DNA of 64,000 nt from an uncultured bacterium (GCA_942493055.1 OW818680.1:4184529-4248528), one strand, 5' to 3'; positions 11,260 to 64,000 are shown, counted from the stretch's first letter. A program made the numbers and translations. Notes: generated from the sequence alone by a model not told the origin.

Positions 11260-12327
11260 TTAACGTGACAGATTGGACAGTTTTTTAGGGTTGTTCGTTA
11301 TTGGTTTATTCTCTTTCTTCTGAAGAAACGACTTTAAGGTTCCAGCTTTCTTTTGCCTGATCCACTCCTCAATGCAGATAACTTCTTCCGTCATGTGTAG
11401 TTTGCGAAGTTGATCATAAGTAGAGATTACTTGGAGCGCTCCTTCGTATGCATGGTCCAGTTTATGTCCACCTCTGAGTTGGGGCTCGATATTGCCAGCT
11501 ATATAAGCGGCCAAGAGCACGTGCCCCTGTTTGTATTCGCGGTCACCTATCCAGGGGCAGCTCTGGGCATCAATATTTACAATTACATCTTCAGACTCCT
11601 GCGCAAAGTTCACGATGAGTCTCATGATTGCAAGTACCTGCTCGCTCGATGGATCCTTTTGAAATAGCTCGATTGCTTTCAGAATGGATTGGGATGTTGA
11701 GCCTTTACTTCCTGCCCCGGCGTTTTTTAACATCTGGGATAGATCTGCGACGAGGTGCTCAGAGGTCTTGCGGCCATCTTCGATATCCTTCTTTGCGTAA
11801 GACAAGCGCGCTTTGACGAATCTGCCAGCAAACCCTGTGATGAAAGTTTCAGAGATCAGTTTTACACCATCAGTTGCATCTTTAACGTGAACAAATTCAA
11901 ATTTGACCCATCTGAACTGAAATGGTCCTGTGGCTGGACGCACTCCCTGGTCTGTTTGTGTGAGATTCTTATAGTCGCCTCGCTCCTGCATAAGCTCTAA
12001 AACTTTTTTAACGGATTGTGCCTCCTCTGTTACGAGCTTACTGTTATGACCTTTAGGAATATCGGCGACCTGCTTGTCGTAAACATAGATATCTGCCTTA
12101 GTTAAATCCTTGCCTTCATAACGCAAGGAGTACCCGAGGCCGGGTTCATCATAACTATGTGTTTTGTAAAACGTTAACCCGCCCAGCGTTTGCGGGAATG
12201 TCAAGCCCGTATCAGGGTCTCTATAGGCTGGCGTGGCTCCCTCTTGGGCAATGATGTAGCTTGTAATCGTTGCTAGCAGTATAGCTGCGAGAGGTCCTGT
12301 TATTTTCATCATCATCTCCGATCTCAA
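11260..12327 (-). CDS. Hypothetical secreted protein
   Basis: A 355-aa ORF with a signal peptide (KITGPLAAILLATITSYIIAQE) and AT-rich codon usage unlike its neighbours. No recognisable motifs. Confidence 0.55.
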   Translation of the reverse strand: MRSEMMMKITGPLAAILLATITSYIIAQEGATPAYRDPDTGLTFPQTLGGLTFYKTHSYDEPGLGYSLRYEGKDLTKADIYVYDKQVADIPKGHNSKLVTEEAQSVKKVLELMQERGDYKNLTQTDQGVRPATGPFQFRWVKFEFVHVKDATDGVKLISETFITGFAGRFVKARLSYAKKDIEDGRKTSEHLVADLSQMLKNAGAGSKGSTSQSILKAIELFQKDPSSEQVLAIMRLIVNFAQESEDVIVNIDAQSCPWIGDREYKQGHVLLAAYIAGNIEPQLRGGHKLDHAYEGALQVISTYDQLRKLHMTEEVICIEEWIRQKKAGTLKSFLQKKENKPITNNPKKLSNLSR

Positions 12328-13490: not shown

Positions 13491-16400
13491 CTATTGGGGT
13501 TCGCAGAAGAAACGCACTTCGTCGAGGCCGATATAATTGTCGCGTCCAGGATACTTGGAGGTCACGTAGATCTGGAGGTAGCGCGTCTTGACGGGCTTGG
13601 AAAAGAAGAGGGATGAGCCTTTGTAGTCTTCCGTCCCTGTGGGTTGCGGGAAGGTCAGGGCATCCACAAGCGTGCCCCACAGCTTGCCCATTTCTGCATA
13701 CTCCGCTCCGTTGGGAGGCAGACGTGTGCCGGCATAGATCTGCGCACTCTGGATGTTGCGATGGCGCTCCGTGGTGGCGTGGTTGTAGCCCCAGTAATGC
13801 AGGCCGCGTACAGTAACCACTTCGCCCAGGTCAAAGGTGATCCAGGTGTTGGTCGCGTCATAGTTCAGCCAGACATCGTTCCCGTCGCTCCACATCGCCG
13901 TGGAGACCGTGGAGTTGGTGGTGACCTCTCCAGCAGGGGAACATCCCGAACCGTTGAGGGTGTTGCGCGCAGATGAACCTCTTTTTGAATAGGTGCTTTG
14001 CGCTGTTGCAGCGACAGGTGCTCGGAAGAGTTTGTTAATGACTTTCTTCACCTCGTTACTAAAGATTACTGGGGCAATAATATTGCCATTTTCATCGCGT
14101 GGCAGACGGCTCTCGACCGTCGGAAATTCGTCCTGACGATAGGCGCGGTTGATGAGCGGTGCGGTCCGCGTGCGAGGACGATAGGGGGACTGCGCATAGA
14201 CGTCCTGCACGGTTTCAGGATCGCGCGGCGGATAGTTGGATTGGCTAAATAGCGGATCTTCCGGATCAGGATCATCCATGGTGCGCACCTCCTGTTCGCC
14301 ACGGTAGGGACAGAGCGTATCGACCCAGAGGATCAGTTTGAACAGGCTGTTTTCATCGACCTTGACCTCGTGATGTTTGCCGCTGCTGGCGATGGCGATG
14401 AGGCGGCTGTTGGCCGAGAGTTTGGTCATGGCCGGCAAGGTACGATAATCTTCAGGCCTCCAAGGATGCGCCTCGGCCAGGATCGTATCCGCAATGCCGC
14501 CCTCGCATACGCCTGGGAAGGCGCCAATCTGGCGCTTCTTTCCCAGTGTCAATGTCAGATAGGGCTCCGGGAAGGTGCCCCCGTCTACGCTCCTGCGCAA
14601 GGTCAGGTCCAGCTTCTCTTTCCCTTTGCCGTTCCCTTGATGGCATTTGCCGCAGTAGGTGTCCAGAATAGGTTGGATGTCGCGTTCATATCCGAGCGAG
14701 TAACTTGCTCCCATCGGATAGGGTTTCAGTTTGGCCGGCGGCTTTTGCAAGGCGTCTCCCTTTGCGACCACGGAGCCTGCGCTGCCTGCCTCGTGACAGC
14801 CTGTACAGCCGCGATTCTCACCGGGCATCAGGTTCGTGAAGGAGCGCATCGTGTGGAGGGCGCGATGATTTTCATCCAGGACTTGGAAGTGAAGGGTCAC
14901 GCACGGCGGTGCCTCAAAGAAGACCGAGCCGTCCGCCTCGATCGGGACTGTGCCTAAGACGCGTTTGACCCCGTCGTTGTGCGTCACGGACATTACAGGC
15001 CCTGAGTGCATGTGCGCGGGATGACCTGGATGATCCACGTCCTGTAATTTTTTTCCGAGCGTGAAGGTGATATGATCAATCGTGAGCACGCGAAGGAATT
15101 TGCCCTTCTGACGCAGGTTGGCGGCCGCGCCTTGAAAGATGTCCGCACTGTAGAAGGTCCCGCTCTTGACAGGTGCCTTGTCCTTCTGCGCGCCTGCCCA
15201 TTGAATCTGGTCAGGGATGATCGGTGGCTTCTGCCGTGGAATCACGGGCATGGGGTAGAGCAGATTGTAGGTGCCGGAGTAGATAAGTTCGCGGTTGCCA
15301 TAGATGTCCATCAGGTAAATGCAGAAGGGCGTGCTGGCGGGATGCGCATTCTCTCCCCACACGGTACGATACCGCTGACGGGCAGAGACGAGGAAGAGTT
15401 CCTTGCTCAGCGGATAAGGCGACTTATAGCCGCCAAACTTTCCTTCAACATGATAAAGCGGCGTCTCCTGGCGTTCAGCTGGCCCGTTGCCCACCTCCGC
15501 CCACGGGGTGTCCCAGGTGACCTTGGTCAGTCCGTCCGGATAGTTGAGCCCTTTCGTGCGGTCAACAATACCGATGCTGGCGTTATAGACCAGATGGTGT
15601 CCGTGTCCTGCGAACATGACGCGATGGTCTCCGGGAATCGGATGCGCCTCCATCAGCATATCCGGCCAGTAACTCTGATTGCCCCAGTAGACGCTGGTGC
15701 CTGTGCCATCGGGATTGACGGTCCACAGACTTTGAATGCGCATCAGCTCCTTGTCCGTGTACTCCCAGCGCGTATAGAGGATGCGTCCGTCCTGCAGCAG
15801 GGTCGGTGTATATTCCGGTTCATTGCCGCCGCTCAGGATATAGATGTTCTTGCCGTCTGCATCGCAACGCGCGACCAAGGTGCTGGGGTGTCCCACGGTG
15901 CACCGCGCATAACTGTTGCCCCGGTTGGTCAGGAAGACAATCTTTCCGTCCGGCAGATAGATGGGGTCCATGTCGTCATAACTGCCTGACGTGAGCTGAC
16001 GCAGTCCTGTGCCATCCACATTGATTTCATACAGGTGGAAAACGCGTTCACCTTTGGGACGGAAACAGAAGAGAATATTCTTTGCGTCAAACGATACTTC
16101 CGGCCGCCAGAACCAGCCTGATCCTGTCTCGGGCGCGACACGTGTGAGCTTGCCTCCGGGATTCAGTCCGTCCAGCATCAGCAGGCGTCCGCAGTTCAGT
16201 TGCGCCTGCGGGTAGACACGGTGCATGGATTCGTGCGGGTAGCGTTCAGGCACATCGATGAAGAGCAGCTTTGAAAAGTTGATAACCGGATCTTTGAACA
16301 TGATCTGACGTTTGAGCGTCCGGATCTTCAGATAGAGGTCAGTCAGTTGGTTGGTCGTTGCAGTTGTTGAAAGCGCAGCGAGCTCTTTTTCCAAATTGTT

Positions 16401-16691
16401 CAGACGTTCAGTATCAGCCTTCAAGAGCTGCGGGTCCATGCGCGCGCTGTAACGCTCGATCATCTGGCGTGTCCAGGTGATCTCTTCCGTGGCGCGTGTC
16501 AATGGAGCTACGTTTTCCATGCGGAAGAGCCAGTCCGCGCGCAAGAGGTCATCAGCCTCCTTTTCGTTCAGCGTCCGCGTCACAGGCTCTTTCGGTCCGT
16601 TGTCCTGATAGGGGAACTCAGTTGTCTGCGCAAAGCAGAAACATCCGCTAGCGCACAGGATCAGCGCCATCAATGGTCCGTTCATCTTCAT
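13491..16691 (-). CDS. Large secreted protein: coiled-coil N-terminus, TolB/PD40-like beta-propeller repeats, PSCyt1-type cytochrome c motifs (2 CxxCH), C-terminal discoidin-like domain
   Basis: The start was chosen at MKMNGPLMALIL (nt 16691), which has a good RBS (aagggggaaatacc); the longer ORF runs to 16763. PD40-like repeats (DGKIVFLTNRGNSY, DGRILYTRWEY). Heme motifs CTGCH and YERDIQPILDTYCGKCHQGNGKGKEKLDL, the latter following the PSCyt1 pattern V.PIL...C..CH. It is paralogous to 30734-34033 and 61094-end. Confidence 0.8.
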   Translation of the reverse strand: MKMNGPLMALILCASGCFCFAQTTEFPYQDNGPKEPVTRTLNEKEADDLLRADWLFRMENVAPLTRATEEITWTRQMIERYSARMDPQLLKADTERLNNLEKELAALSTTATTNQLTDLYLKIRTLKRQIMFKDPVINFSKLLFIDVPERYPHESMHRVYPQAQLNCGRLLMLDGLNPGGKLTRVAPETGSGWFWRPEVSFDAKNILFCFRPKGERVFHLYEINVDGTGLRQLTSGSYDDMDPIYLPDGKIVFLTNRGNSYARCTVGHPSTLVARCDADGKNIYILSGGNEPEYTPTLLQDGRILYTRWEYTDKELMRIQSLWTVNPDGTGTSVYWGNQSYWPDMLMEAHPIPGDHRVMFAGHGHHLVYNASIGIVDRTKGLNYPDGLTKVTWDTPWAEVGNGPAERQETPLYHVEGKFGGYKSPYPLSKELFLVSARQRYRTVWGENAHPASTPFCIYLMDIYGNRELIYSGTYNLLYPMPVIPRQKPPIIPDQIQWAGAQKDKAPVKSGTFYSADIFQGAAANLRQKGKFLRVLTIDHITFTLGKKLQDVDHPGHPAHMHSGPVMSVTHNDGVKRVLGTVPIEADGSVFFEAPPCVTLHFQVLDENHRALHTMRSFTNLMPGENRGCTGCHEAGSAGSVVAKGDALQKPPAKLKPYPMGASYSLGYERDIQPILDTYCGKCHQGNGKGKEKLDLTLRRSVDGGTFPEPYLTLTLGKKRQIGAFPGVCEGGIADTILAEAHPWRPEDYRTLPAMTKLSANSRLIAIASSGKHHEVKVDENSLFKLILWVDTLCPYRGEQEVRTMDDPDPEDPLFSQSNYPPRDPETVQDVYAQSPYRPRTRTAPLINRAYRQDEFPTVESRLPRDENGNIIAPVIFSNEVKKVINKLFRAPVAATAQSTYSKRGSSARNTLNGSGCSPAGEVTTNSTVSTAMWSDGNDVWLNYDATNTWITFDLGEVVTVRGLHYWGYNHATTERHRNIQSAQIYAGTRLPPNGAEYAEMGKLWGTLVDALTFPQPTGTEDYKGSSLFFSKPVKTRYLQIYVTSKYPGRDNYIGLDEVRFFCEPQ

Positions 16692-24200: not shown

Positions 24201-25152
24201 TCGCTGCCTCGTCGCGGATTTCACCGCCCACGCCCGTGGCTGCGCCAGGGTAGGGGGAGATGGCAGTCGGGTGGTTATGCGTCTCGACCTTCATGAGCAT
24301 ATCAACCTGGTCAGGCTCAAAGCGGTAGGTCTTGGTGGCCGTGTCGATGAAGAAGGCCTCAGTCTCGACGCCTTCCACGACGCCTGAATTGTCCTTGTAA
24401 GCGACCAGCGTGCCTTCAGGATGGCAGGCGTGGGTATGCTTGATCATCTGGAAAAGCGACTGGGCCTTCTCTTCGCCGTCGATAATCCAGTTCGCATTGA
24501 AAATCTTGTGGCGGCAGTGTTCCGAGTTCACTTGGCCGAACATCACTAGTTCCGTGTCTGTGGGATTGCGTCCGGCCTTGGTGTAGCTCTCGAAGAGGTA
24601 GCTGATCTCCTCCTCGCTCAAGGCGAGCCCCATGGTGGTGTTCGCCTCCTGCAAGGCGGCGATGCCGCGTCCCAGCACATCGAACGACTTGCCGCGTGCC
24701 GGCGGGCGATGTGCGAAGAAGTCCGACAGATCCACATACACGCCCTCGGTCATGCGGTCATGCAGGGCATTCAGCACCGGACGCAGCGCTTCAACCGAGA
24801 CAGGCTTGCCATCCACGGAGACGCAGAAGTGAACGCCACGTTCCACGCGCGTCACCGAGGCGATGCCGCAGTTATTAAAGATGTCAGTCGCCTTGGAAGA
24901 CCAGGGGGAGATGGTTCCCTTGCGCGGGGTGACGAAAAAGCCCTCGGCCAGGTTCGCATGACCCGAGGCGCCGAGCAGGGAGCAGGCGCGCGATAAGGTC
25001 TCGCCGTCCAGGTCCTTCTCGATCTCCAGCAGGTAGACAAACCACGCCTCAAGAGTAGTGGTTCCCTGGATGGTTTCGGATATTTTTTCAACCAACGTGT
25101 CGAGTCGGAATTTTGAAAAAGCCTGCACACCTTGCAACATCAACATCTTCAT
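21253..25152 (-). CDS. purL: Phosphoribosylformylglycinamidine synthase, single-chain large form
   Basis: A 1299-aa ORF colinear with single-chain FGAM synthase. It has the N-terminal PurS-like region, AIRS and AIRS_C domains, and a C-terminal class I glutamine amidotransferase domain ([12 protein letters not shown]). Confidence 0.95.
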
Positions 25153-25390: not shown

Positions 25391-26323
25391 ATGAAGTCGA
25401 TGTTGAGTATCGTAGGGGTCTTGTTAGCTGTCGGTTGTGTTGCACAGGAGAAGTCTGAATCATTTATGAAGGGGCGGCGTTTTGCTGTTGGCGATTATTC
25501 AGGCAGCAAGGTTGCGATTGTCGAGGCGGACGGCACCATGAGTTGGAGTTTCCCTGCGCCCAATTGTAATGACGTGTGGATTCTCCCGGGCGACTCGCTC
25601 CTCTTTGTGGCCGGTACAGCGGTCCGCGAAGTGTCGATCGCGGATAAGAAGGTCAAATTCGAGTACACCAGCAAATCAACGATCTATGGTACGCAACGGC
25701 TCGCCAACGGCAACACCTTCGTTGCAGAGTGCACAGGCGCGAAATTGTTGGAAGTCGCCCCGGATGGCAAGGTCGTCAAGACCTTGGCGTTGGCACCGAA
25801 GGACAATGAAAAGGGCAAGGACACGCCGGGCAACGGAGCCTATATGCGAAATGCGCGCGCGCTGCCGAATGGCCATTACCTCGTCGGACACTATGCCGGA
25901 AACCGCGCAGCGGAATATGATGCGGACGGTAAAGAGGTGTGGACAGCCAAGCTCCCCACGGGCGTCCACAGCGTGGTGCGGCTTCCGAACGGCAACACCA
26001 TGCTGGCCGGGACGGACAAGGGGCCCACGGGCTTGCGCGAATTTAATCCGGCAGGCGAGGTTGTGTGGAGCCTGACGAACGAGGATTTGGCGGATAAGCC
26101 GCTGAAGTTCACGACTGGCTTTCAGATCCTGCCCAATGGAAACATCCTGCTCACAAACTGGGTCGGCCATGGACAATTCGGCAAAGCGCCGCATATCCTG
26201 GAGGTCACCCGCGACAAGAAGGTCGTCTGGACCTTCAACGACCATGTGAATTTCAAGACGATTGCCTCTGTTCAGGTCTTCCCGAAAGAGGGAGAGAAAC
26301 TGGAAATCATGAATGTGCATTAA
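25391..26323 (+). CDS. Secreted or lipoprotein beta-propeller protein (function unknown)
   Basis: Lipoprotein-like signal (LLAVGCVAQ) and repeated blade-like units (LANGNTFVAE, LPNGHYLVGH, LPNGNTMLAG, LPNGNILLTN). It is divergent from purL. Confidence 0.6.
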   Translation: MKSMLSIVGVLLAVGCVAQEKSESFMKGRRFAVGDYSGSKVAIVEADGTMSWSFPAPNCNDVWILPGDSLLFVAGTAVREVSIADKKVKFEYTSKSTIYGTQRLANGNTFVAECTGAKLLEVAPDGKVVKTLALAPKDNEKGKDTPGNGAYMRNARALPNGHYLVGHYAGNRAAEYDADGKEVWTAKLPTGVHSVVRLPNGNTMLAGTDKGPTGLREFNPAGEVVWSLTNEDLADKPLKFTTGFQILPNGNILLTNWVGHGQFGKAPHILEVTRDKKVVWTFNDHVNFKTIASVQVFPKEGEKLEIMNVH

Positions 26324-26325
26324 GA

Positions 26326-26567
26326 GTGGAGTGGAATACTGGAATAGTGGAATGTTGGAATGTTGGAATGCTGGAATGTCGGAATACTGGAATCTTGGAA
26401 TAATGGGAGAGAAAACCACTGGTCATTGGGAGCGGCGCAGGCCTCTGCGCTACAGGGAGGGACGGCGGATCGCCGTCTAAGCGGGCGATCCGCCCGCTCT
26501 CCCAGAACCAGCATCCAGTTGTGTTCCCCAACATTCCAAAATTCCCATATTCCCATATTCCATTGAA
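26326..26567. repeat. Composite intergenic repeat (TGGAATR arm, two-hairpin GC core at 26455-26503, inverted ATTCC arm)
   Basis: It starts 3 bp after the stop of 25391-26323. In the core gggagggacggcggatcgccgtctaagcgggcgatccgcccgctctccc, the second hairpin carries compensatory substitutions relative to other copies (agcgggcg/cgcccgct versus ggcggtcg/cgaccgcc). Confidence 0.85.
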
Positions 26568-26587
26568 GTTTACGAAGGAGTTGAAAG

Positions 26588-28765
26588 ATGAAGCACGAAC
26601 GGTTTGTAGTAGCGTTTGGATTGATCGCCTGCTCGTTACAGGCGGCAGTGAAGGTGCCGGCGATTTTCGGCGAGAACATGGTGTTGCAGCAGCAGCAACC
26701 CGTGCCGGTCTGGGGATGGGCCGATGCGAATGAGCAGGTCACAGTCGAATTTGCAGGACAGAAGAAGTCAGCGACCGCAGGTGCCAATGGCAAGTGGATG
26801 TTGAAGCTCGATGCCTTGAAAGCCTCTGCAACGCCAGCTGTCTTTAAGGTCAGCGCCTCGAATGTCATTACGCTGAACAATGTCGTGGTGGGTGAAGTCT
26901 GGTTTGCCTCCGGACAGTCCAACATGGAGTGGCCTGTGCAGGCGAGTAATAATTTTGACCAGGAGAAGGCCAGTGCGAATTGGCCGCTGATCCGCCACTT
27001 CAAGGCGCCCAAGAATTTTAAGCCTTCGCCACAGGACGACATCAGCGCCAAGTGGGAGGTGACCACGCCGGAGTCGATCGGAGGACAGTCCGCGCTGGCC
27101 TACTTCTTCGGGCGCCGTCTTCATGAAGCATTGAAGGTCCCTGTCGGCATGATCAACAGCTCATGGGGCGGAACCCGCATTGAGCCCTGGACCCCTGCGT
27201 GCGGTTTTGAAGGCCTGTCGGCGCTCGAAGGCATTAAGAGCCGTGTCGATATGGCCACGCCCTCCACGCCTGTTCACAAGAAGGCCTTGAACGAGTATAT
27301 CGCTGCCTTGAACGTATGGATGGACGATGCCAAGAAGCGCGAGGCAGCGGGTCAGGCGATCGAAACACCCGCCCCGGAGTTCCCGCAAAACTTGATCTTC
27401 CCGACGGGGAACGGTAAACATCAGGAGCCGACCGTGCTCTATAACGGCATGATGGCCGGCCTGGTTCCCTTTGCGATCAAGGGCGCGATCTGGTATCAAG
27501 GCTGCTCGAACAATGGCGAAGGCATGCTTTATCTTGAGAAGACTAAGGCCTTGGTCAATGGCTGGCGCGCAGTCTGGGGCCAGGGCGACTTCCCATATTA
27601 TCTCGTGCAACTCGCGCCCTACAATTATGGAGCTGGCGCTGAGGCGCGCCTGCCGGGTATCTGGGAGGCGCAGGCAGCAGTGCCTGCCGCGATTCCGAAT
27701 ACGGGCTATACCGTCATCAATGACATCGGCAACCCCAAAGACATCCATCCGCGTAACAAGCAGGACGTGGGCCTGCGCATGGCCAACCAGGCGCTCAATC
27801 GCACATACGGCATGAAGGAGATTGCATGGTCCGGCCCTGTCTACAAGTCGTTTGCCATCGAAGGCGCAAAGATGCGCATTGCTTTTGATTGCGCCGACGG
27901 ACTCAAGACCCGCGATGGCAAAGCCCCTGACTGGTTTGAGATGGCTGGACAGGATGGCCAGTATAAAACCGCGGATGCCGTGATTGAAGGCTCTGCCGTC
28001 GTTCTTTCGAATGCCTCCATCGATAAGCCCCTGGCTGCGCGCTTTGCCTGGAACCAAATCGCCGAGCCCAACCTGGTCAATGGTCTTGGCCTGCCGACCA
28101 GCGCCTTCCGTTGCGGTGAGATGCCGAAGCTCGATGGCGCGCTCGCGATGACCGAGTTGAACGGTTTTCGCAAGGTCTATGAGCTCGACCTTCCTGCGAA
28201 TCCCAAGTTTGCACAGCAGGCGCCTGCCTACTCCACCGACAACAGCGCATGTGCGGGAGAGTTTTCAAAGGTCGCGTATGTATTGCAACTGGAAGACAAC
28301 AGCGGCAGCATTCGCTATGTGGCCACGTTCATGGATGCTTTTACAAAGGATGTGAAGAAGTTAACCATCCCTTATGCCGGGAGCAACATCAAGCACCAGA
28401 TGAAGGTCAATAATCTGACGGTGCGCTCCAATGTGGAAACGCTTCCGACACTGACCGACAGCGATGGCGGCAACATCGAATTTTGGGGCGCGAACTATGG
28501 TCCCGGAACCGTATTGCGCTTGGACGGCGCCAGCCAGCAAAAATATGATTTCGATGATCAGCCTGCTGCGGATGGCACGTATGGCTCTATGCAGGTCCAT
28601 GCCTGGAAAAACAAGATCGTACTCTTCGCCTTCAATAATTTCAATGGCGGCGGGACGTGCGACATCGGCATCGGCAACAACACCAAGGGCGAACAACAGG
28701 ATTACACCTTCATGAGCAATGGCGGCGACTATAAGACGCGGCGCTTGACGGTATTGGTAAAGTAA
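26588..28765 (+). CDS. Sialate O-acetylesterase-like SGNH hydrolase (carbohydrate acetylesterase) with extra C-terminal domains
   Basis: Signal peptide present. The block VVGEVWFASGQSNMEWPV is characteristic of the sialic acid-specific 9-O-acetylesterase (DUF303) family, and the SGNH-like GDFPYYLVQL block follows. 725 aa. Confidence 0.85.
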   Translation: MKHERFVVAFGLIACSLQAAVKVPAIFGENMVLQQQQPVPVWGWADANEQVTVEFAGQKKSATAGANGKWMLKLDALKASATPAVFKVSASNVITLNNVVVGEVWFASGQSNMEWPVQASNNFDQEKASANWPLIRHFKAPKNFKPSPQDDISAKWEVTTPESIGGQSALAYFFGRRLHEALKVPVGMINSSWGGTRIEPWTPACGFEGLSALEGIKSRVDMATPSTPVHKKALNEYIAALNVWMDDAKKREAAGQAIETPAPEFPQNLIFPTGNGKHQEPTVLYNGMMAGLVPFAIKGAIWYQGCSNNGEGMLYLEKTKALVNGWRAVWGQGDFPYYLVQLAPYNYGAGAEARLPGIWEAQAAVPAAIPNTGYTVINDIGNPKDIHPRNKQDVGLRMANQALNRTYGMKEIAWSGPVYKSFAIEGAKMRIAFDCADGLKTRDGKAPDWFEMAGQDGQYKTADAVIEGSAVVLSNASIDKPLAARFAWNQIAEPNLVNGLGLPTSAFRCGEMPKLDGALAMTELNGFRKVYELDLPANPKFAQQAPAYSTDNSACAGEFSKVAYVLQLEDNSGSIRYVATFMDAFTKDVKKLTIPYAGSNIKHQMKVNNLTVRSNVETLPTLTDSDGGNIEFWGANYGPGTVLRLDGASQQKYDFDDQPAADGTYGSMQVHAWKNKIVLFAFNNFNGGGTCDIGIGNNTKGEQQDYTFMSNGGDYKTRRLTVLVK

Positions 28766-28770
28766 GAGAT

Positions 28771-28895
28771 TGGAATGTTGGAATATTGGAATACTGGAGT
28801 GTGGGAACTAGAAGCTTTCCGGGGTACTGCTAACTGCTACTGCCAACTGCTACTCTCCCCATTATTCCACCATTCCATTGTTCCATCATTCCACT
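28771..28895. repeat. Composite intergenic repeat, coreless variant (TGGAATR arm, short spacer, inverted ATTCC arm)
   Basis: gattggaatgttggaatattggaatactgg...ccattattccaccattccattgttccatcattccactg. The spacer tgctaactgctactgccaactgctact replaces the GC core. Confidence 0.75.
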
Positions 28896-28915
28896 GAAAT
28901 TAAAGGAGCACAGAC

Positions 28916-30451
28916 ATGGCATACTACTTAGGCATTGATAGCAGCACACAGAGTTTGAAGGGATTGGTCATCGATCCTTCAGCAGGAAAAATCATCGGCA
29001 GCGCGAATGTGAATTTCAAGGCGGACCTGCCGCAGTTCAACTGTCCGGATGGCGTGCTGGCGCATCCCGATCCCTTGGTCAAGCACTCCGACCCGATGAT
29101 GTGGATGGCGGCGCTGGATCTGATGCTGACGCGCTTGCAGGCGAGCGGAATTGCCATGAGCGAAATCGCGGCCATCGGCGGCGACGGACAGCAGCATGGC
29201 TCTGTTTACCTCAACAGCACCTTTGCGAAGGTCGCTGCGAATTTAAATCCGGCGTTGACGCTGGCTGAACAGCTCAAGAGCACGCTTTCGCGTCCGACCG
29301 CGCCGATCTGGATGGACAGCTCGACATCCGTGGAGTGCCGCGAATTGGACAAGGCCTTTGGCGCGCGTCTGCAGACCGATACGGGTTCTCCCGCGATTGA
29401 ACGTTTTACAGGTCCGCAAATCCGCAAGTTTGCGAAGCACGAGCCGGAACGCTATGTGCAGACCGCGCGCATTCATCTGGTCAGCTCCTTCCTCTGCTCC
29501 GTGCTGATCGGCAAGGACGCGCCCATTGACCGCGGCGACGGCGCGGGCATGAATCTCTTGAATCTCAAGACCAACACCTGGGATCCGCAGATCACGGAAT
29601 TCACGGCGCCTGGCTTGCAGCAGAAGTTGCCTCCTGTCGCCGGCGGTGTCGCAGGCCACTTGCACGCCTACTTTGCGAAGTACGGCTTGAAGGCCGGAAT
29701 TCCTGTGGCTGTCTGGACCGGCGACAATCCTGCGAGTTTGGTCGGCACGGGCGCCTGGAGCGCCGGCGTGGCGGTCATCAGTCTGGGCACGAGCGATACC
29801 TTCTTCTCCTCGCTGGAGAGTTTCAGGACTGATCCTGAAGGCTGCGGACACGTGCTGGGCAATCCGGCTGGCGGCTGTATGTGCCTGGCCTGCTTCAAGA
29901 ACGGCTCGCTCGCTCGCGACCGCGTGCGCAAAGAGGCTGGCGCGGAATGGTCCTTCTTTGACAAGACCGCCTTCGAACTGACTCCTGCAGGCAATAACGG
30001 CCAGTTGGCATTGCCGTGGTTTGAAGCGGAGATCACGCCGCCGGTATTGACGCCTGGCATGCGCGCGAATTTTGATTTTGCTGCTGCGAAACCCGAAGTG
30101 CGTATCCGTGCGACAGTGGAGGGCCAGGCACTGGCTCTGCGCAGCCATGCGGCCTGGATCGGCAGCTTCAAGAGTATCCGCGTCACCGGCGGCGCTTCGA
30201 AGAGTCCTGGCATCCGCCAGACGCTCGCGAACGTCTTCCAGGCGCGTGTGGAGAGCATTGCCGTGGCGGATTCCGCTGCCCTGGGCGGCGCGATGATGGC
30301 TGCGCATGCGGACGGCGTGCCGCTGGCGAAGATGACCGAGGCCTTCTCGCCGGTCAGCGACGTCTGCCTGCCTCAGCCCGAGACCGCGGCTGTCTACGAC
30401 AAGCTCCTGCCGCTCATCCGCGAGTTGGAGAAAGCAGCACCGATTAGCTGA
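28916..30451 (+). CDS. FGGY-family carbohydrate kinase (xylulokinase/ribulokinase-like)
   Basis: N-terminal MAYYLGIDSSTQSLKGLVID (FGGY motif 1), the central GTSDT block, and the C-terminal GGASKSPGIRQ ATP-binding motif. 511 aa. Confidence 0.8.
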   Translation: MAYYLGIDSSTQSLKGLVIDPSAGKIIGSANVNFKADLPQFNCPDGVLAHPDPLVKHSDPMMWMAALDLMLTRLQASGIAMSEIAAIGGDGQQHGSVYLNSTFAKVAANLNPALTLAEQLKSTLSRPTAPIWMDSSTSVECRELDKAFGARLQTDTGSPAIERFTGPQIRKFAKHEPERYVQTARIHLVSSFLCSVLIGKDAPIDRGDGAGMNLLNLKTNTWDPQITEFTAPGLQQKLPPVAGGVAGHLHAYFAKYGLKAGIPVAVWTGDNPASLVGTGAWSAGVAVISLGTSDTFFSSLESFRTDPEGCGHVLGNPAGGCMCLACFKNGSLARDRVRKEAGAEWSFFDKTAFELTPAGNNGQLALPWFEAEITPPVLTPGMRANFDFAAAKPEVRIRATVEGQALALRSHAAWIGSFKSIRVTGGASKSPGIRQTLANVFQARVESIAVADSAALGGAMMAAHADGVPLAKMTEAFSPVSDVCLPQPETAAVYDKLLPLIRELEKAAPIS

Positions 30452-30733: not shown

Positions 30734-33700
30734 ATGAGCGTGAGAAAAGCAAGAAGAAATATGTTGGGCGTCTTAATCGGGATTGTGCTTTCATTGAGAT
30801 GCGCTTCAGCATGTGCGGATATCCAGCTCTCTCCCTGGCAGGCGATCGGCCCCTTTAAGAATGCCCAGTTTGGGAGCCTTGTGCCCAGTTCGAAAGAGGT
30901 CTATGCGCCTGAAGCGGACGTGCTGGCAAAAGGGGCGGCGCTGGCGGACCTCTCGAAAAGCTACACCGGCGTCAATGTGGATGCAGAGGGGAAGCCCTTT
31001 CCGATGTACGATGCCTTCACCGTTGCGAAATGGGTGCAGCATCCGGAGTGGGCAGACGGGTATCGCAACCTGTTGCCGCGCGGTCCTGCGCCGTCACGCC
31101 ATGAGACAACCTATCTTTACCGCACGATCACTGCATCCGTAGCGACAAACGTAACGCTGCGCGTCTATGCGGAGGATGCCATACAGGCATGGATCAATGG
31201 CGCACCCAACGGACGTGCGATGCGCGTCTACAGTCCCGAGCATCGGCCGACGGCTCTGGTGGCATCCGTGCCCTTGCAGAAGGGGGCGAATCGTTTGCTC
31301 ATCAAAATCACCTCCCTGTTTGCTAAGCATGGCTTTGCCTTTGCCATCGATGGCGTCACAGTTTCCAGCACGCTCGCGCCAGAGGGCTGGCAGGATGTGT
31401 GCAGGAACGAGAAACAGCCTTATCTACTGGATGCGCAAGGCGTGCCGAAGTCAGGGGTGTTCAGGATGAAGGCCCTGCCGGAGCCGATGTTCGACCCCGC
31501 GCAGTTGACCCTGGAGGAGGCGCGCAAATCCATCCCGCTCACCGAAGGGGGCGCTGCGTATGAGCGCTCCATCCGGGCAGTCAATCCGCTAGACCGGCAG
31601 ACGATTCTCGCGCATTGGCAGGGACAGCTCAAGCGGACGGGTCCTATTCTCTTCATGACCTATCCAACCTATTCAATCAATGCCATCGCCCCCCATTCAT
31701 CTCAAGGGGCGTGCCCGGCCTCCATCTGTCTCTTTGATCCGGCCGACCCGAAGGAGTCCCCGAAAGTGATCTTTGCTGAAGAGGAACTCAAGCTCTTCGA
31801 CATGAATCTCTCCTACGACGGCAAGACGATCTTCTTTTCCGCCAAACGAAAAGAGGACGGCCCCTTTTGGCAGATCTATGAGATCGGCACGGACGGGAAG
31901 AATCTGAAGAAAATCATCGGGGGTCAGTGCCAGAACATCAGTCCTGCCCTCCTGCCGGACGGACGGCTCATCTTCATCTCTGACCGCGCCACAACGTATG
32001 TGCAGTGCCAGGCCCAGACCTCGCCCCTTCTCTATTCATGTGCGCGCGACGGTTCAGACATCCGGAAGCTCTCAGCCAATATCGACAGCGACCATACGCC
32101 CCAAGTCATGAACGACGGCAAGATCCTCTTCACGCGCTGGGACTATGGCATTGATAAGAATGTGGACAACCGCCAGGCGCTCTGGACCATGAATCCGGAC
32201 GGGACCGCCATGAAGCTCTTCTTTGGCAACACCATTGAAGATCCGAGCGGTTTCTGGGCTGCGCGGCCTGTGCCCGGACGGCCTGAAGTGCTTTGCGTGC
32301 TGGGTCCGCACCACAACAACCATACGGGCATGGCTGGGCTTGTCTGGAATCTGAAAGGACCAGAAGCGCCGCGCGGCGAGGGCTTCCGCTTCCTGACCCT
32401 CCAGCGTCCCTACGTGGGCGATACAGGACTCCCCTGGCTCTGGCAGGATCTCTATCCCGTCAATGAGAAGCTCTTTCTCGCGAGCTACGGAGGCGACGGC
32501 GGACTCAAAAACCGCCTCTACCTGCTGGATGACCGCGGCAACCGGTTCTGCTTCTATGAGTCTGCGACCAACCTGGGCTGTTTCAATCCCATGCCCCTTG
32601 CGCCCCGTCCTGTACCGCCAGAGGTTGCGCAGGGCTGCACGCCGGTCCCCTTTGTGTTTGAGGACCCTGAACAGCTGAACCAGGCGCCCCGCACCAATGA
32701 CGTCGCTACCTTGATGGTATATGATGTCTATCTGGGCGTCGAACCGCATATCAAGCGCGGCGAAGTCAAATGGATTCAGGTGATGGAGCAGGTGTTGAAG
32801 TCACGGCGCATGGATGGCGGCGAAGCGTGGGGCCACACGCCCATCATCGGACGCGGCACTGTCCATGTGCGCCGCGAGATCGGAAGGGTCCCGGTGAACG
32901 CGGACGGTTCCGCCCATTTCACGGTGCCTGCCCTGCGCAACATCTCCATGAACCTGCTCAACGCGGAAGGCCAGGTCATCATGCGCATGGGCTCTGACAT
33001 GCACACCATGCCCGGCGAGAAGCAGAACTGCATCGGCTGCCACGAGAATCGCAAAGGGGGCGTGCCGCCCTCTGTGACCAAGCAGCCGTTGGCGAGCAGC
33101 CAGCCGCCGGTCGCGCCCCAACAGGCCAACTGGGGGACTCAGGGCGTCATCGACTATCAGCGCGTCGTGCAGCCTGTCTGGAACCGCTATTGCGTCAGCT
33201 GCCACAGCGGGCCGAGGCCCGTAGCGCACCTCGATTTAAGCGGCGACCGTACGCGCTTCTTCTGCGTCTCCTACGACAACCTTGTGGAGCGCGCCCTGGT
33301 CGAATGGCATCAGCCTTTCGCCAACGACTACGACGACAACTTCCCGAAGACCGTCGGAGCCGTTGTCAGCAAGATCCAGACGAAAGTGCTCGACTCCAAA
33401 CATTGCGGGAAGACCATTCCTCCGGACATGCGCTACCGGGTCTGGTGCTGGATCGATGCCAACGTGCCCTATTACGGGACGTACGACTACACCAAGGTGA
33501 AAGACGAGAAGGGGCGCGAGATCGTCCGCGGCGCTGGCGCACGCGATGCGTGGCAGGCAGACGGCATCTGGTCGCAAGCGAACTGGTCCAAGCACTATCC
33601 CAGCACGCCGAACCTCATTTACGACGGCATCAAGCCTGTCTTTGACAGACGCTGCATGAGCTGCCATGAGACGCCGGTGTACAACGGCGGCACCTGGGGC

Positions 33701-34033
33701 TTTGGCGGCGGCTCCATGGACGCCCCCTTCCCGGTCAGCAGCAAGCTCTGGCAGGATCGCGGACTCTGTGCGCACATGGCCATACCGCGTTACGGCTCGA
33801 GCCTCATCTACGGACCGGAACTGCGCATCAACCTCACGAATCCTCAAAACAGCTCCATGCTGCAGGCCCCGCTCTCAAAGGAGGCAGGCGGCTGGGGCGT
33901 GTGCAAAAAACCCGATGGCAAGCCGCTCTTTGAGTCCACGGCTGATCCGGACTACCAGACCATGTTGAAAGCCATCAAGGCCGCCTCCGACCGCCTCCGC
34001 GCCGCGCCCCGTAAAGACATGGCGGGGGAGTAG
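30734..34033 (+). CDS. Large secreted protein: N-terminal beta-sandwich (PA14/lectin-like), TolB/PD40 beta-propeller repeats, three PSCyt1-type CxxCH heme motifs
   Basis: Signal peptide present. PD40-like repeats (DGKTIFFSAKRKEDGPFWQIYEIGTDGKN, PDGRLIFISDR, DGKILFTRWDYG). Heme motifs CIGCH, YQRVVQPVWNRYCVSCHSGPRPVAHLDLSG and CMSCHETP. It is paralogous to 13491-16691 and 61094-end. Confidence 0.8.
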   Translation: MSVRKARRNMLGVLIGIVLSLRCASACADIQLSPWQAIGPFKNAQFGSLVPSSKEVYAPEADVLAKGAALADLSKSYTGVNVDAEGKPFPMYDAFTVAKWVQHPEWADGYRNLLPRGPAPSRHETTYLYRTITASVATNVTLRVYAEDAIQAWINGAPNGRAMRVYSPEHRPTALVASVPLQKGANRLLIKITSLFAKHGFAFAIDGVTVSSTLAPEGWQDVCRNEKQPYLLDAQGVPKSGVFRMKALPEPMFDPAQLTLEEARKSIPLTEGGAAYERSIRAVNPLDRQTILAHWQGQLKRTGPILFMTYPTYSINAIAPHSSQGACPASICLFDPADPKESPKVIFAEEELKLFDMNLSYDGKTIFFSAKRKEDGPFWQIYEIGTDGKNLKKIIGGQCQNISPALLPDGRLIFISDRATTYVQCQAQTSPLLYSCARDGSDIRKLSANIDSDHTPQVMNDGKILFTRWDYGIDKNVDNRQALWTMNPDGTAMKLFFGNTIEDPSGFWAARPVPGRPEVLCVLGPHHNNHTGMAGLVWNLKGPEAPRGEGFRFLTLQRPYVGDTGLPWLWQDLYPVNEKLFLASYGGDGGLKNRLYLLDDRGNRFCFYESATNLGCFNPMPLAPRPVPPEVAQGCTPVPFVFEDPEQLNQAPRTNDVATLMVYDVYLGVEPHIKRGEVKWIQVMEQVLKSRRMDGGEAWGHTPIIGRGTVHVRREIGRVPVNADGSAHFTVPALRNISMNLLNAEGQVIMRMGSDMHTMPGEKQNCIGCHENRKGGVPPSVTKQPLASSQPPVAPQQANWGTQGVIDYQRVVQPVWNRYCVSCHSGPRPVAHLDLSGDRTRFFCVSYDNLVERALVEWHQPFANDYDDNFPKTVGAVVSKIQTKVLDSKHCGKTIPPDMRYRVWCWIDANVPYYGTYDYTKVKDEKGREIVRGAGARDAWQADGIWSQANWSKHYPSTPNLIYDGIKPVFDRRCMSCHETPVYNGGTWGFGGGSMDAPFPVSSKLWQDRGLCAHMAIPRYGSSLIYGPELRINLTNPQNSSMLQAPLSKEAGGWGVCKKPDGKPLFESTADPDYQTMLKAIKAASDRLRAAPRKDMAGE

Positions 34034-61093: not shown

Positions 61094-64000
61094 ATGCGCG
61101 GGAGAGTAAAGCAGGGGAATTGCTTTTTCAAAATCGTGTGCTATACGGTACTGGCTTTCGGGTCGGCAACAAGTGATGCGCGCGAGGCGCTGTCTAATAA
61201 TCCTAATCTTTCTCCTGCGGCGCGGAAGGCGATTGAGGCGGATTGGCAGCGGCAGGAGAAGGTGACGCGGCAGGTTGCGGCCACTTCGCCGGCGGCTCTT
61301 GACGGGCTCCTCATGCGTGGTCGGCTGATGTGTACGGATATGGAGGAGCTGGGCGGCAACGCGGCAGTGAAGGCGGCGCGCGAGAAGCTGGAGGAGATCA
61401 ACGCGGCACGCGACAAGCTTGTCGCTGACCATTGTCCGGCAGGGGACGCCTGGCTGAAACCTTATCTGGAATTGCGCTGGGCGCTCCGTGCGCTGGCCTT
61501 CAGTAATCCACGGCTGGACTTCGCCAGCCTGGTGTTTGTCAAGCGGCGCTGGCCGTCGATCAACCACCAGTGCTCGCATCGTGTCGGCGAGGCGCAGGCA
61601 GGCGGGGCGAGCCTCTGCATCCTGACAGGGCTGCATCCTGACGGTTCAGTCAGGGAGCTTCTGGATGCGGACCATGCCCGCGGCGGGGTCGGGCGGCCGG
61701 ATCTCTCGTTTGATGCGAAGCAACTGGTCTTCCCGTATGCCGAACCGCGTATGGGCGGTACTATGAACTACGGCTATGGCCAGCCCGGTGTCCGCGGCGG
61801 TAAATGTCTGATGTATGATATCTGGACAATCAATATCGATGGGACAGGCCTGAAGAATCTCACCCGTGCGCCCGGCTATGAGGACACGGAGCCGTGTTTT
61901 CTTCCGGACGGGCGGATCGCCTTTACGTCGTCCAGGTCCGGTCGCCTTGTGCAGTGCGGCAACTGGGCGCTGGTCTGCGGCATCTACTCTATGAAGGCCG
62001 ACGGATCCGACGTGCGTCAGGTGACGGAGCCTAAGGAGGGCGAATTTTATCCGAGCATGCTGGACGACGGACGGCTCATCTACACCCGGTGGGACTATGT
62101 GATGAAGGGATATAATGTGATCCAGCAGGTGTGGGCTGTGAACCCGGATGGCACGAGATCCCAGCTCTATTACGGCGACTGGTTCTCCTTCTCCAAAGGG
62201 CCCATCGCCTTATTCGAAGCGCGCCAGGTTCCGGGGAGCCGCAAACTCATGGCCACCGGAGCAGCGCATCACAATTCAGGGGTAGGACCGCTGATGCTGG
62301 TCGATCCGGCCAAGAACCGGGGGACGCTCGACTCCATGATCAACGTGACTCCGGAAGTCGCGTATCCGGAAACCGGCGCGCTGGGAAATGAAGTGGAGCA
62401 GCCGGAGCTGACCTACAAGGCGCTGCCCAACACAGGCTGGTATACGTCGCCCTGGCCCCTTTCCGAAAAACATTTCTTATGCGTGTACTCCTTCGACGCG
62501 AACAATACATCGGCGTTTGGCTATGGGATTTACCTGCAGGATATCCATGGGAACAAGGAGCTGATTTACCGGGGAAGCGATTTCTCGTGCTATGCGCCCA
62601 TGCCGCTGAAGCCCAGGCCGCGGCCGAAGGAGTTGCCGGATACGGTGAAGGGGCATGATCCGCAGGCGCCCGGGACGCTGATCGTGACGGATATCTACAA
62701 GGGGCTGATTGGCGTGAAACCGGGCGAGGTTAAATTCCTGCGCGTGCTGGAAACGCACCCCAAGATTATTGAGACCACGCCCCAGCGGGTTGACATGGGT
62801 GTGAACTGCGGGTGGGATGCGCGCGGGGTCCTGGGCACGGTTCCGGTGGAGGAGGATGGCTCAGCCTGTTTCCTGGCGCCCTCGAACCGGCAGCTCTTCT
62901 TTGAAGCGCTTGACAAAGATCATCTGGAAATTCGGCGCATGCGGAATTTCATGAACCTCATGCCCGGCGAGACTGTGGGGTGCGTGGGGTGCCATGAGTC
63001 GTACTCCTCGGCAGCGAACCCTTCTGCGACAGAGGGGCTCATGGCCTTGAAACGCGCGCCTTCGAAGATCACGCCGCCTGCATGGGGCACGGACGGGCTT
63101 GCCTTTCCGAGGGTCGTGCAGCCGGTCCTGGACCGCCTGTGTGTCAAGTGTCATGACGGGGAGAAGGGCAAGGATAAGAGTTTTGATCTGCGGGGCTTGA
63201 AATGGGTGAAGGCTCCGGGGCCCCACGACCCGGACCAGGGGCCTCAGCATCTGGTCAGCGACGCGTTCCTGAAGTTGCTGGACTATGTGTCGTACGTCCG
63301 TGTCGGCGGGTATCACGGGCCGAAGCTTCCGTTGCAGGCGTTCAAGACAGGCTCCCATGAGAGCCGGCTGATGCAGGTCCTGGCCAAGGGGCATCACGGG
63401 TTGACGCTGGCTGCAGACGACTGGCAGGCGCTGGCCTGCTGGATTGACTGCAACGCGCCGTTCTATGGAGACTGGCAAAACATCATTGTGGGGCCAGGGG
63501 CAGGTGCGGAGGTGCTGCGTGAGCTGACGGACGTGGACAAAGCGCTGATCAATACCCGGGTGCGGCAGTTGAACAGCCAGAGCAAGGAGAAGGGACGGCT
63601 GGTCGGGTATCTGGCTGGCGGGTTGCAGGCAAGCTCCGACCTGGATAAGAATATTGTCTTCTCTCAGGTGCAGGGGCAAGGGTGGACGTGTCCAGAAATG
63701 CAGAAGGTGGAGAAGCTGCCGCCGACCCAGCGGGCTCTGGCCTTCAGCAATGTCAGTCTGAAGTTTGAGGTCAAGGGGCTGGATCCGACGAAACGTTATG
63801 TTCTTGGGCTGACCTGGTGGGATTACAACAATGCCCAGCGGATGCAAAGCATTTCGTGCAAGGGCAGAAAAGAGGCAAGAAGCATTAAATTGCTGGATAC
63901 CACCCTGCTGCCGAATTACACGGCTGGACGGCAGTTGCCTGGCACCGTGACACTGGAGATCCCGCAGGAACTTTCGCGGCAGAGCGAGCTTTCGCTGACG
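61094..64000 (+). CDS. Large secreted TolB/PD40 beta-propeller + PSCyt1-type cytochrome c protein, 3'-partial (third paralog)
   Basis: The frame stays open from the ATG at 61094 to the window end; it is not in the supplied ORF track because it lacks a stop. Signal-like N-terminus (FFKIVCYTVLAFGSA). PD40-like repeats (PDGRIAFTSSRSG, DGRLIYTRWDYVMKG). Heme motifs CVGCH and FPRVVQPVLDRLCVKCHDGEKGKDKSFDLRG. It is colinear with the two paralogs. Confidence 0.8.
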   Translation, partial: MRGRVKQGNCFFKIVCYTVLAFGSATSDAREALSNNPNLSPAARKAIEADWQRQEKVTRQVAATSPAALDGLLMRGRLMCTDMEELGGNAAVKAAREKLEEINAARDKLVADHCPAGDAWLKPYLELRWALRALAFSNPRLDFASLVFVKRRWPSINHQCSHRVGEAQAGGASLCILTGLHPDGSVRELLDADHARGGVGRPDLSFDAKQLVFPYAEPRMGGTMNYGYGQPGVRGGKCLMYDIWTINIDGTGLKNLTRAPGYEDTEPCFLPDGRIAFTSSRSGRLVQCGNWALVCGIYSMKADGSDVRQVTEPKEGEFYPSMLDDGRLIYTRWDYVMKGYNVIQQVWAVNPDGTRSQLYYGDWFSFSKGPIALFEARQVPGSRKLMATGAAHHNSGVGPLMLVDPAKNRGTLDSMINVTPEVAYPETGALGNEVEQPELTYKALPNTGWYTSPWPLSEKHFLCVYSFDANNTSAFGYGIYLQDIHGNKELIYRGSDFSCYAPMPLKPRPRPKELPDTVKGHDPQAPGTLIVTDIYKGLIGVKPGEVKFLRVLETHPKIIETTPQRVDMGVNCGWDARGVLGTVPVEEDGSACFLAPSNRQLFFEALDKDHLEIRRMRNFMNLMPGETVGCVGCHESYSSAANPSATEGLMALKRAPSKITPPAWGTDGLAFPRVVQPVLDRLCVKCHDGEKGKDKSFDLRGLKWVKAPGPHDPDQGPQHLVSDAFLKLLDYVSYVRVGGYHGPKLPLQAFKTGSHESRLMQVLAKGHHGLTLAADDWQALACWIDCNAPFYGDWQNIIVGPGAGAEVLRELTDVDKALINTRVRQLNSQSKEKGRLVGYLAGGLQASSDLDKNIVFSQVQGQGWTCPEMQKVEKLPPTQRALAFSNVSLKFEVKGLDPTKRYVLGLTWWDYNNAQRMQSISCKGRKEARSIKLLDTTLLPNYTAGRQLPGTVTLEIPQELSRQSELSLT

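Follow-up and report, generated by a model that had tools for sequence, protein, structure and literature searches.

What kind of protein joins a TolB-like beta-propeller to c-type haem motifs, and what might it do in a polysaccharide-degrading bacterium? This question is raised by a 64,000-nucleotide stretch of DNA (hereafter, the window) from an uncultured bacterium (GCA_942493055.1 OW818680.1:4184529-4248528), in which three paralogous genes, here designated P1, P2 and P3, encode exported proteins of this kind. A preliminary description of the window regarded them as a novel, possibly lineage-specific coupling of PD40-type propellers with the Planctomycete-type cytochrome PSCyt1. Our analysis led to a different identification: P1, P2 and P3 are stand-alone homologues of the hydrazine synthase (HZS) alpha subunit from anaerobic ammonium-oxidising (anammox) bacteria (HzsA, kuste2861, PDB 5C2V_A), and thus new members of a known, uncharacterised family. 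That they are haem-binding HzsA-related proteins we consider close to certain. The features of the three genes, with signal peptides predicted by reading the sequence and HZS_alpha domains assigned with Pfam, are as follows.

13491..16691, minus strand: P1, HzsA-related two-haem protein, 1066 amino acids from Met25 of an open reading frame (ORF) that stays open to 16763 (1090 amino acids)
16626..16691, minus strand: P1 predicted signal peptide, MKMNGPLMALILCASGCFCFA followed by cleavage before Q; residues 1-30 have a low predicted local distance difference test score (pLDDT)
15147..16271, minus strand: P1 six-bladed PD40-type beta-propeller, residues ~141-515
15900-15902, 15759-15770 and 15594-15599, minus strand: P1 family-conserved propeller residues Cys264, Arg308 with Trp309 and Tyr311, and His365/His366, respectively; Arg257 belongs to the same set
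14772..15104, minus strand: P1 HZS_alpha middle domain (PF18582, E 2.8e-20), with the haem I motif CTGCH at 14793-14807
14112..14714, minus strand: P1 C-terminal helical cytochrome-c-like domain, with the haem II motif CGKCH at 14640-14654, aligned to HZS alpha at 'RRDIQPILDAKCAMCH'
14373-14375, minus strand: P1 putative distal haem II ligand His773, aligned with the anammox 'VMHDK' (His772) region
13503..13847, minus strand: P1 C-terminal putative F5/8 type C (discoidin-like) beta-sandwich (PF00754, E 9.7e-7), strands within residues 949-1063
30734..34033, plus strand: P2, HzsA-related three-haem protein, 1099 amino acids
30734-30817, plus strand: P2 predicted signal peptide (...LRCASACA, then D)
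~31103-31351, plus strand: P2 N-terminal beta-rich module
32759-33046, plus strand: P2 HZS_alpha domain
33029-33043, 33191-33205 and 33653-33667, plus strand: P2 haem motifs (CxxCH)
61094..64000, plus strand: P3, HzsA-related two-haem protein, 969 codons, ended by the window edge
61094-61180, plus strand: P3 predicted signal peptide (...AFGSATSDA, then R)
62724-62998, plus strand: P3 HZS_alpha domain
62981-62995 and 63140-63154, plus strand: P3 haem motifs (CxxCH)

The start of P1 is likely to be Met25 (16691), in agreement with the start adopted in the preliminary description and with the 1072-amino-acid length of a 94%-identical relative (P0001). P3 appears to be short by about 10-20 residues, as its closest full-length relative (P0273, 51% identity across 951 residues) has 977 amino acids. 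The reading frames were otherwise found as they had been described: the three proteins align colinearly with pairwise identities of 27-33%, start with Sec-type signal peptides, and possess PD40 repeats, detected with Pfam, N-terminal to the HZS_alpha domain and to aligned CxxCH motifs. In the AlphaFold2 model of P1 (pLDDT 80, predicted template-modelling score 0.77), a helical part (residues 43-131) precedes the propeller (~141-515), which is followed by a beta-rich middle domain terminating in the haem I motif CTGCH (629-633), a helical domain that contains the haem II motif CGKCH (680-684), a disordered linker of low pLDDT (879-946) and the beta-sandwich (949-1063); the model of P2 had a pLDDT of 72.8. 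P1 is the base architecture with an added, probably discoidin-type module, and P2 the same base with a third cytochrome-c-like haem module. A discoidin or lectin-like domain had been ascribed to two of the copies; Pfam recovered it in P1, barely over the cutoff (29.4 bits vs 28.2), and gave no such match for P2 and P3. No Pfam match was obtained for the N-terminal 255 residues of P2, nor for the C-terminal ~170 residues of P3 (the last 167).

Domain calling placed all three proteins in PF18582 ('Hydrazine synthase alpha subunit middle domain') with 70.8-78.7 bits against a gathering cutoff of 26.6 (E-values from 1e-19 to 5e-22), and left PSCyt1 unmatched. The best match in the PDB was 5C2V_A with every approach: by phmmer (E 5e-10) in five colinear pieces that extend over the propeller, the CxxCH of the middle domain and 'RDIQPILDxxCxxCH' in the C-terminal part, by the family profile (E 1.3e-23), and by Foldseek, with E-values of 3.4e-27 for the P1 model and 2.8e-26 for the P2 model over 810-818 columns and a target-normalised template-modelling score of 0.60-0.62. 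The next Foldseek match, TolB (~1e-10), was confined to the propeller. The haem sites align with 'RICSGCH' (haem I) and with 'DAKCAMCH' / 'RRDIQPILDAKCAMCH' (haem alpha-II) of HZS alpha. Beyond the CxxCH motifs, the comparison was made by alignment with C-terminal fragments of anammox HzsA, in which the family signature 'GKHH / SKHC / G-HH' falls within one column of the anammox 'VMHDK', whose His772 is the distal histidine of the bis-His haem alpha-II. From the N-terminal region through the six-bladed propeller and the middle domain, with its haem I motif C-x-G-C-H, to the helical haem II domain, the arrangement of P1-P3 is that of HZS alpha; they also share a haem II carried on 'QPI(L/I)DxxCxxCH' and a histidine at the position of His772, at an identity of just 16-18%. 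The coupling of propeller and haem that had seemed novel is the whole three-domain architecture of HZS alpha.

The haem motifs number two in P1, three in P2 and two in P3, are aligned among the three proteins and take the common forms MPGExxxCxGCHE and QP[IV][LW]xxxCxxCH, as the preliminary description had reported for the latter. Given that composition alone predicts 0.007-0.010 CxxCH per protein, the observation is real and far above chance; the other 42 of the 45 genes called in the window have none. The possibility that these are incidental cysteines, considered in the preliminary description, can be set aside, as both motifs are invariant in 49 close relatives and persist in 123 of 126 diverse ones, the remaining three being gapped at CxxCH. 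In this alignment of 126 sequences, haem I reads C-x-G-C-H in all 123 non-gap rows, and the C-x-x-C-H of haem II, present in 122-123 rows, is preceded by Q-P in 119-122. Exactly two CxxCH were counted in 65 of the 72 full-length ORFs from 79 genome loci, and the third was kept in 20 of 22 P2-type representatives. At single loci of Planctomycetaceae, Phycisphaerales and Thermoguttaceae metagenome-assembled genomes (MAGs; L040, L048 and L049), three HzsA-related genes stand in tandem; some of these copies contain a single CxxCH ('TRPGEQRACVGCHAP'), so that a one-haem variant may exist.

Does this kinship extend to the formation of hydrazine? The host is a Kiritimatiellia glycan/polysaccharide degrader; its PurL (21253-25152) is 66-94% identical to the listed relatives, of which the named ones belong to Kiritimatiellae/Kiritimatiellia and a few are called just 'bacterium'. 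A genuine HZS alpha that would confer cryptic anammox-type hydrazine formation on such an organism could be argued for from the three-domain architecture and two homologous haem sites shared with 5C2V_A, and from the apparent retention of the distal histidine of haem II; we nevertheless judge the chance of it to be negligible. The NCBIfam equivalog for HZS alpha (NF052339) gave 49, 34.9 and 36.7 bits for P1, P2 and P3 vs a cutoff of 800. Anammox HzsA bears, right after the CxxCH, an insertion of ~60 residues with Tyr591 (His+4), the ligand of haem alpha-I; P1-P3 are devoid of this insertion, and the residue at His+4 is S in P1, K in P2 and S in P3, with Tyr in none of 119 relatives. P1-P3 further differ from HZS alpha in a conserved Glu after the CxxCH and in a non-anammox host, and their family in lectin-type extra modules and, in P2, a third haem. 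They also have no beta/gamma subunits: as no further CxxCH protein occurs in the window, it holds no beta/gamma (CCP/MauG-like) partner, and a beta-gamma-like partner was near just one of 79 related loci. The host lineage consists of carbohydrate fermenters/degraders, and published work on other alpha homologues likewise concluded that these do not make hydrazine (PMC12758564, PMC10732223). The single partner-like gene, the sole such case among the 79 related loci, is located three genes away from an HzsA-related gene in a Planctomycetaceae MAG (L023, 12415-14391, minus strand) and encodes a beta-propeller with a C-terminal two-haem CCP/MauG-like region (CATCHPDG, CADCHPAP).

The identification made in the preliminary description, a novel fusion of a TolB-like propeller with a PSCyt1-type cytochrome in a lineage-specific family expanded in this genome, was not borne out and we consider it very improbable. 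It draws on the motif QP[IV]LxxxCxxCHxG...LDL of P1, P2 and P3, which resembles what we take to be the PSCyt1 consensus, and on weak generic cytochrome c matches at this motif (Cytochrome_CBB3 and PccH, E 1e-2 to 8e-6). The PSCyt1/DUF1549/DUF1553 proteins of Planctomycetes are, moreover, exported proteins of the Planctomycetes-Verrucomicrobia-Chlamydiae (PVC) group with a CxxCH after a short helix ('P-I-L-x3-C-x2-C-H'), and in this they are alike, but their overall architecture is not that of P1-P3. PF07635 was matched neither by the full proteins (E<=0.1) nor by the isolated haem-II/haem-III segments (E<=10) nor by 43 diverse members (1e-4), with the proviso that HMMER filters may conceal very weak matches, and DUF1549 and DUF1553 were absent from the Pfam results for P1-P3. 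In HZS alpha, this very motif makes up the haem alpha-II site, and it is the entire protein, beyond its parts, that matches HZS alpha. TolB itself was tried and rejected as an identity (equivalog scores of 21.6-34.3 bits vs a cutoff of 343); it has the propeller fold in common with P1-P3, which lack its N-terminal domain and tol-pal neighbours and contain haem domains.

As to lineage specificity, the phylogenetic distribution speaks against it. Of 8,000 candidates scored in a word-indexed search, at least 4,752 90%-identity clusters had E<1e-5; PF18582 was present in all of the best 120 listed relatives, and one relative (63% identity over the 54% of P1 covered) is named 'HzsA-related protein' by NCBI, the family being already known from Pfam and NCBI naming. 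A profile scan of 1.84 billion representatives yielded at least 2,724 50%-identity clusters with E<=1e-30, a number that rises to 13,773 with E<=1e-10. These thousands of clusters are spread over many phyla: Planctomycetota, Verrucomicrobiota/Kiritimatiellia, Lentisphaerae, Hydrogenedentota and others. In species genomes of GTDB, at least 590 loci with relatives were found, among them loci of Planctomycetaceae, Pirellulaceae, Thermoguttaceae (many from rumen or gut), Phycisphaerae, Kiritimatiellia, Opitutales, Lentisphaerae, Hydrogenedentota and Chthonomonas, with multiple and tandem copies per genome being frequent. The family is large and PVC-centred. Its 123 representatives comprised 29 of the two-haem P1 type, 22 of the P2 type and a broad P3-type remainder of 72. 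Each copy in the window is 44-94% identical to proteins of other organisms vs 27-33% to its window paralogues; since the copies are nearer to proteins elsewhere than to each other, they are not the product of a lineage-specific expansion, and P1, P2 and P3 belong to three old, deep subfamilies (two-haem, three-haem and two-haem, respectively).

What, then, might these proteins do? Outside the haem motifs, conservation in the 126-row alignment is strictest in the propeller, where Cys264, Gly302, Trp309 and Tyr311 were found in all rows, Asp328 in 125, Arg257 in 124, Arg308 in 122, His365 in 121 and His366 in 111. In the middle domain, Met615 (120/126) and Glu625 (122/126) precede the CTGCH of haem I and Glu634 (109/126) follows it; in the haem II domain, His773 is kept in 109 rows, and Trp789 and Asp791 in 119. 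In the P1 model, Cys264 is situated in a long loop that joins two strands of one propeller blade. No partner cysteine is conserved alongside it: the candidate, position 276, holds Met in 54 rows and Cys in 40. A structural disulfide is thus unlikely and a role as a ligand or in catalysis plausible.

As the likeliest reading we propose, with no particular chemistry assigned, that P1-P3 are glycan-directed periplasmic oxidoreductases of a two-haem type; our confidence in this is somewhat less than even, and in the overall account given here slightly more than even. The link to glycans, already suggested in the preliminary description, is plausible. Close relatives of P1 carry N- or C-terminal NPCBM, LamG, rhamnosidase_N or GH2_N-like, 3-keto-disaccharide-hydrolase and F5/8C modules, one of them with a sub-threshold GH43, and relatives of the P2 and P3 types carry F5/8C, Fucosidase_C, CE2_N or Mala_s_1-like modules. 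Some members belong to sugar-catabolic operons. In a Kiritimatiellae MAG (L030), the HzsA-related gene follows an IclR regulator with a gap of 4 bp and precedes DeoC with a gap of 10 bp; genes for an FGGY kinase, a dehydrogenase of the GldA type and a class II ketose-bisphosphate aldolase come next. Lentisphaerae WC36 (L062), for which the genome is complete, has the gene flanked by an AraC regulator and a GH78 rhamnosidase. An IclR regulator was adjacent or near in seven loci.

Within the window, the preliminary description had all three genes next to carbohydrate-active genes; this is so for P2, applies loosely to P1, which has a WbsX-like gene upstream, and does not hold for P3, which adjoins a divergent two-component system and has a GH2, a GH120 and a sugar transporter more than 13 kb off. 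The genes preceding P2, as assigned with Pfam, are the following.

25391..30451, plus strand: co-directional genes 5' of P2, encoding a Mala_s_1/arylsulfotransferase-like propeller, a SASA-type esterase (725 amino acids) and an FGGY sugar kinase

The best NCBIfam match of the kinase was XylB, under the cutoff. These genes may share one transcription unit with P2, and the sole strong terminator-like hairpin is found after P2, at 34287-34326. This is a perfect palindrome on the plus strand with an 18-bp stem, TACTCAACGCATTGAGTA aaat TACTCAATGCGTTGAGTA, followed by a T-run, 250 bp past the stop of P2; though it resembles a terminator, its length is unusual, and it could instead belong to a repeat element. 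The gene run that P2 ends starts with a stand-alone Mala_s_1/arylsulfotransferase-like beta-propeller (25391-26323, plus strand), and as the Mala_s_1 domain is also fused C-terminally in relatives of the P2/P3 type (P0332, P0290), a functional link is hinted at. P1 and P3 seem to be monocistronic. Next to P1 on its downstream side lies an ORF of ~355 amino acids (11260-12327, minus strand) with no Pfam or NCBIfam match. A URO-D / MtaA-CmuA-like protein is encoded in the window at 47333-48652 (minus strand) and also within a few genes of HzsA-related genes at L040, L048, L051 and L070; with 5 of ~80 loci, this association is weak.

In the reaction that we envisage, the proteins would be exported by the Sec route and acquire their haems by covalent attachment in the periplasm. 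Haem I would lie at the junction of middle domain and propeller, as haem alpha-I does in hydrazine synthase, and the reaction site could be formed by haem I together with Arg257, Cys264, Arg308, Trp309, Tyr311 and His365 from the propeller and Met615, Glu625 and Glu634 from the middle domain. Because P1-P3 lack the Tyr591 insertion, the ligand of haem I would, unlike in hydrazine synthase, be the histidine of its own CxxCH. Haem II, for which bis-His ligation (His684 and His773) is probable, could serve as an electron relay between haem I and a soluble periplasmic carrier of the menaquinone chain. A UbiE/MenG-type methyltransferase is encoded beside a UbiA/MenA-type prenyltransferase in the window (5400-7024, minus strand), and the host probably makes menaquinone. 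Cultured Pontiella of the same order (Kiritimatiellales), with 55-56% G+C, have menaquinones, several periplasmic c-type cytochromes and cbb3 and bd oxidases (PMC7356697), so that a periplasmic haem protein could be connected to such a chain. The variable lectin- or carbohydrate-binding-module (CBM)-type modules would keep the enzyme on the glycan, which would make a sugar or sugar-borne group the most likely substrate. Analogues are the fungal AA12 pyrroloquinoline quinone (PQQ)-dependent pyranose dehydrogenase with its AA8 cytochrome and CBM1, the bacterial quinohaemoprotein dehydrogenases and cytochrome cd1 nitrite reductase. The likeness is by analogy only: P1-P3 have just the generic six-bladed fold in common with them, give no indication of a site for PQQ or haem d1, and would have as catalytic cofactor a c-type haem in a separate middle domain.

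Several points weigh against the proposal of a glycan-directed oxidoreductase. No family member has a tested function (PMC12758564); a Pfam-detectable lectin/CBM-type module was present in just ~12-13 of 43 diverse members (~30% of an unbiased sample), and such modules could tether the protein to its own cell surface and not to a substrate. The placement of Cys264, His365, Met615 and the other residues around haem I is itself inferred, and with Met615 or Cys264 as a sixth ligand haem I could be a plain electron-transfer haem. No neighbouring gene family is conserved across the 79 loci; when 668 ORFs of 82 sequences (81 loci and the window) were clustered, no conserved operon partner emerged, with no neighbour family in more than 7 loci, and only one of 143 genes adjoining HzsA-related genes encodes a CxxCH. 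Sulfatase is the most frequent neighbour, but its frequency is close to the background in genomes of this kind, and it was for this reason not counted as evidence. Finally, many of the hosts live strictly anaerobically, and this speaks against any chemistry that depends on oxygen.

The want of an operon partner would also suit proteins that are not enzymes at all but periplasmic or surface multihaem shuttles, with propeller and lectin modules that dock to a partner or to the glycan layer of the cell, e.g. in extracellular electron transfer to metals, anthraquinone-2,6-disulfonate (AQDS) or sulfur. A probably bis-His haem II has the ligation usual for electron transfer, the conserved Met615 could give a His/Met haem I, members of the P2 type add a third cytochrome-c-like haem, and the route by which Kiritimatiellales reduce AQDS, metals and sulfur is not known (PMC7356697). 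We think such a shuttle or anchor unlikely, as the strictest conservation is seen in the propeller (Cys264, Gly302, Trp309 and Tyr311), several of whose conserved residues are polar or reactive (Cys, Arg, His, Tyr) and typical of an active site and not of a docking scaffold. Two or three haems over ~1000 residues would, besides, make a poor wire, and K. glycovorans reduces the same acceptors without c-type cytochromes (PMC7356697).

An enzyme whose substrates are small N or S compounds (hydroxylamine, NO, nitrite, sulfite, thiosulfate), and not sugars, is harder still to credit and strikes us as a rather slim prospect. Its chemistry would be akin to that of the haem alpha-I site of HZS or of His/Cys-ligated haems (TsdA, SoxA), and the lectin modules would merely localise it near desulfating or deaminating glycan breakdown. 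For it speak the common stock with an enzyme whose haem alpha-I binds hydroxylamine, the sulfatase-rich hosts, and the lone and absolutely invariant Cys264, a pattern known from haem-ligating or catalytic cysteines (TsdA, SoxAX), with the reservation that the role of this cysteine is only putative. No nitrogen- or sulfur-cycle genes adjoin P1-P3 or recur in the 79 loci, and of the zinc/Tyr arrangement by which the HZS alpha-I site is defined, Tyr591 at least is not retained; for Cys303, which in bona fide HZS alpha binds zinc together with His587, the invariant Cys264 would be a candidate counterpart.

The remainder of the window is in keeping with the lifestyle of its host: it encodes a sulfatase, a GH16, two GH2-like proteins and a GH120, along with a sugar transporter of the major facilitator superfamily, the FGGY kinase, a GFO/IDH/MocA oxidoreductase and an AraC regulator. 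A scan of the window with Rfam returned nothing. Directly after P2, a low-GC patch (34392-39389; 47% vs ~56%) encodes an AAA_14/DUF4143 ATPase, a protein with DUF4041 and T5orf172/MUG113 (GIY-YIG-like) domains and a 357-amino-acid ORF without a Pfam match, and looks like a small acquired or defence-type islet; with the neighbour of P1, the ORF at 38316-39389 (minus strand) makes two of ~355 amino acids without a Pfam match. At 52051-57993 (plus strand), a giant helicase-nuclease of defence-like type, 1980 amino acids long, unites DUF4011, an SF1 helicase (AAA_11/AAA_12), a restriction-endonuclease-like domain (MTES_1575) and DUF3320.

Homologues of HZS alpha have been described before: Hagglund et al. 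(2025, PMC12758564) reported those of Planctomycetota and Desulfobacterota, which form clades I-IV, and Suarez et al. (2023, PMC10732223) reported hzsA-like genes in Phycisphaerae UBA1845. Like P1-P3, they are non-anammox relatives of HzsA with a canonical haem I pocket and without Tyr591, and were judged incapable of hydrazine synthesis, their function being not known. The published papers centre on copies beside beta-gamma genes and call the alpha homologues few (PMC10732223, PMC12758564); their homologues were chosen for adjacency to fused beta-gamma homologues, whereas P1-P3 and 78 of the 79 related loci are without such a partner. His772 was reported absent from clade I (PMC12758564), whereas the aligned histidine is kept in most rows of our alignment. 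Lectin/CBM fusions and sugar-operon contexts are not discussed in PMC12758564, in which the word 'carbohydrate' occurs 0 times, and our literature search for a tie between hydrazine-synthase-like proteins and polysaccharide or sulfatase biology found nothing relevant. The large, stand-alone, lectin-decorated branch, its counterpart of His772 and its invariant propeller site are absent from the literature searched.

Hydrazine synthase has so far been treated as a near-orphan invention of anammox bacteria. The window exposes a much larger side of its family, in which alpha-like proteins without partners, equipped with both haems, a probably bis-His haem II and a strictly conserved propeller site, are found by the thousand in sugar degraders among the Planctomycetota, Verrucomicrobiota/Kiritimatiellia, Lentisphaerae and other groups; this side provides a concrete ancestor pool for the HZS alpha subunit and represents an abundant haem protein family of glycan-degrading bacteria in guts, rumens and sediments. 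Matches to HZS_alpha in metagenomes should therefore not be read as evidence of anammox. It is possible, if doubtful, that the lectin-decorated stand-alone HzsA-related proteins form a new class of c-type-haem redox enzymes on glycans or glycan-borne groups in mostly anaerobic PVC bacteria, with Cys264 as a haem ligand or catalytic residue, and that they are at the same time the ancestral stock from which anammox HzsA arose by gain of the Tyr591 insertion and the beta-gamma partner. Should either the glycan-redox or the ancestral reading be true, the gain would be worthwhile: if they act on carbohydrates, these proteins would amount to a novel type of carbohydrate-active redox enzyme, independent of oxygen, and a haem counterpart of the 'auxiliary activity' enzymes in polysaccharide breakdown.

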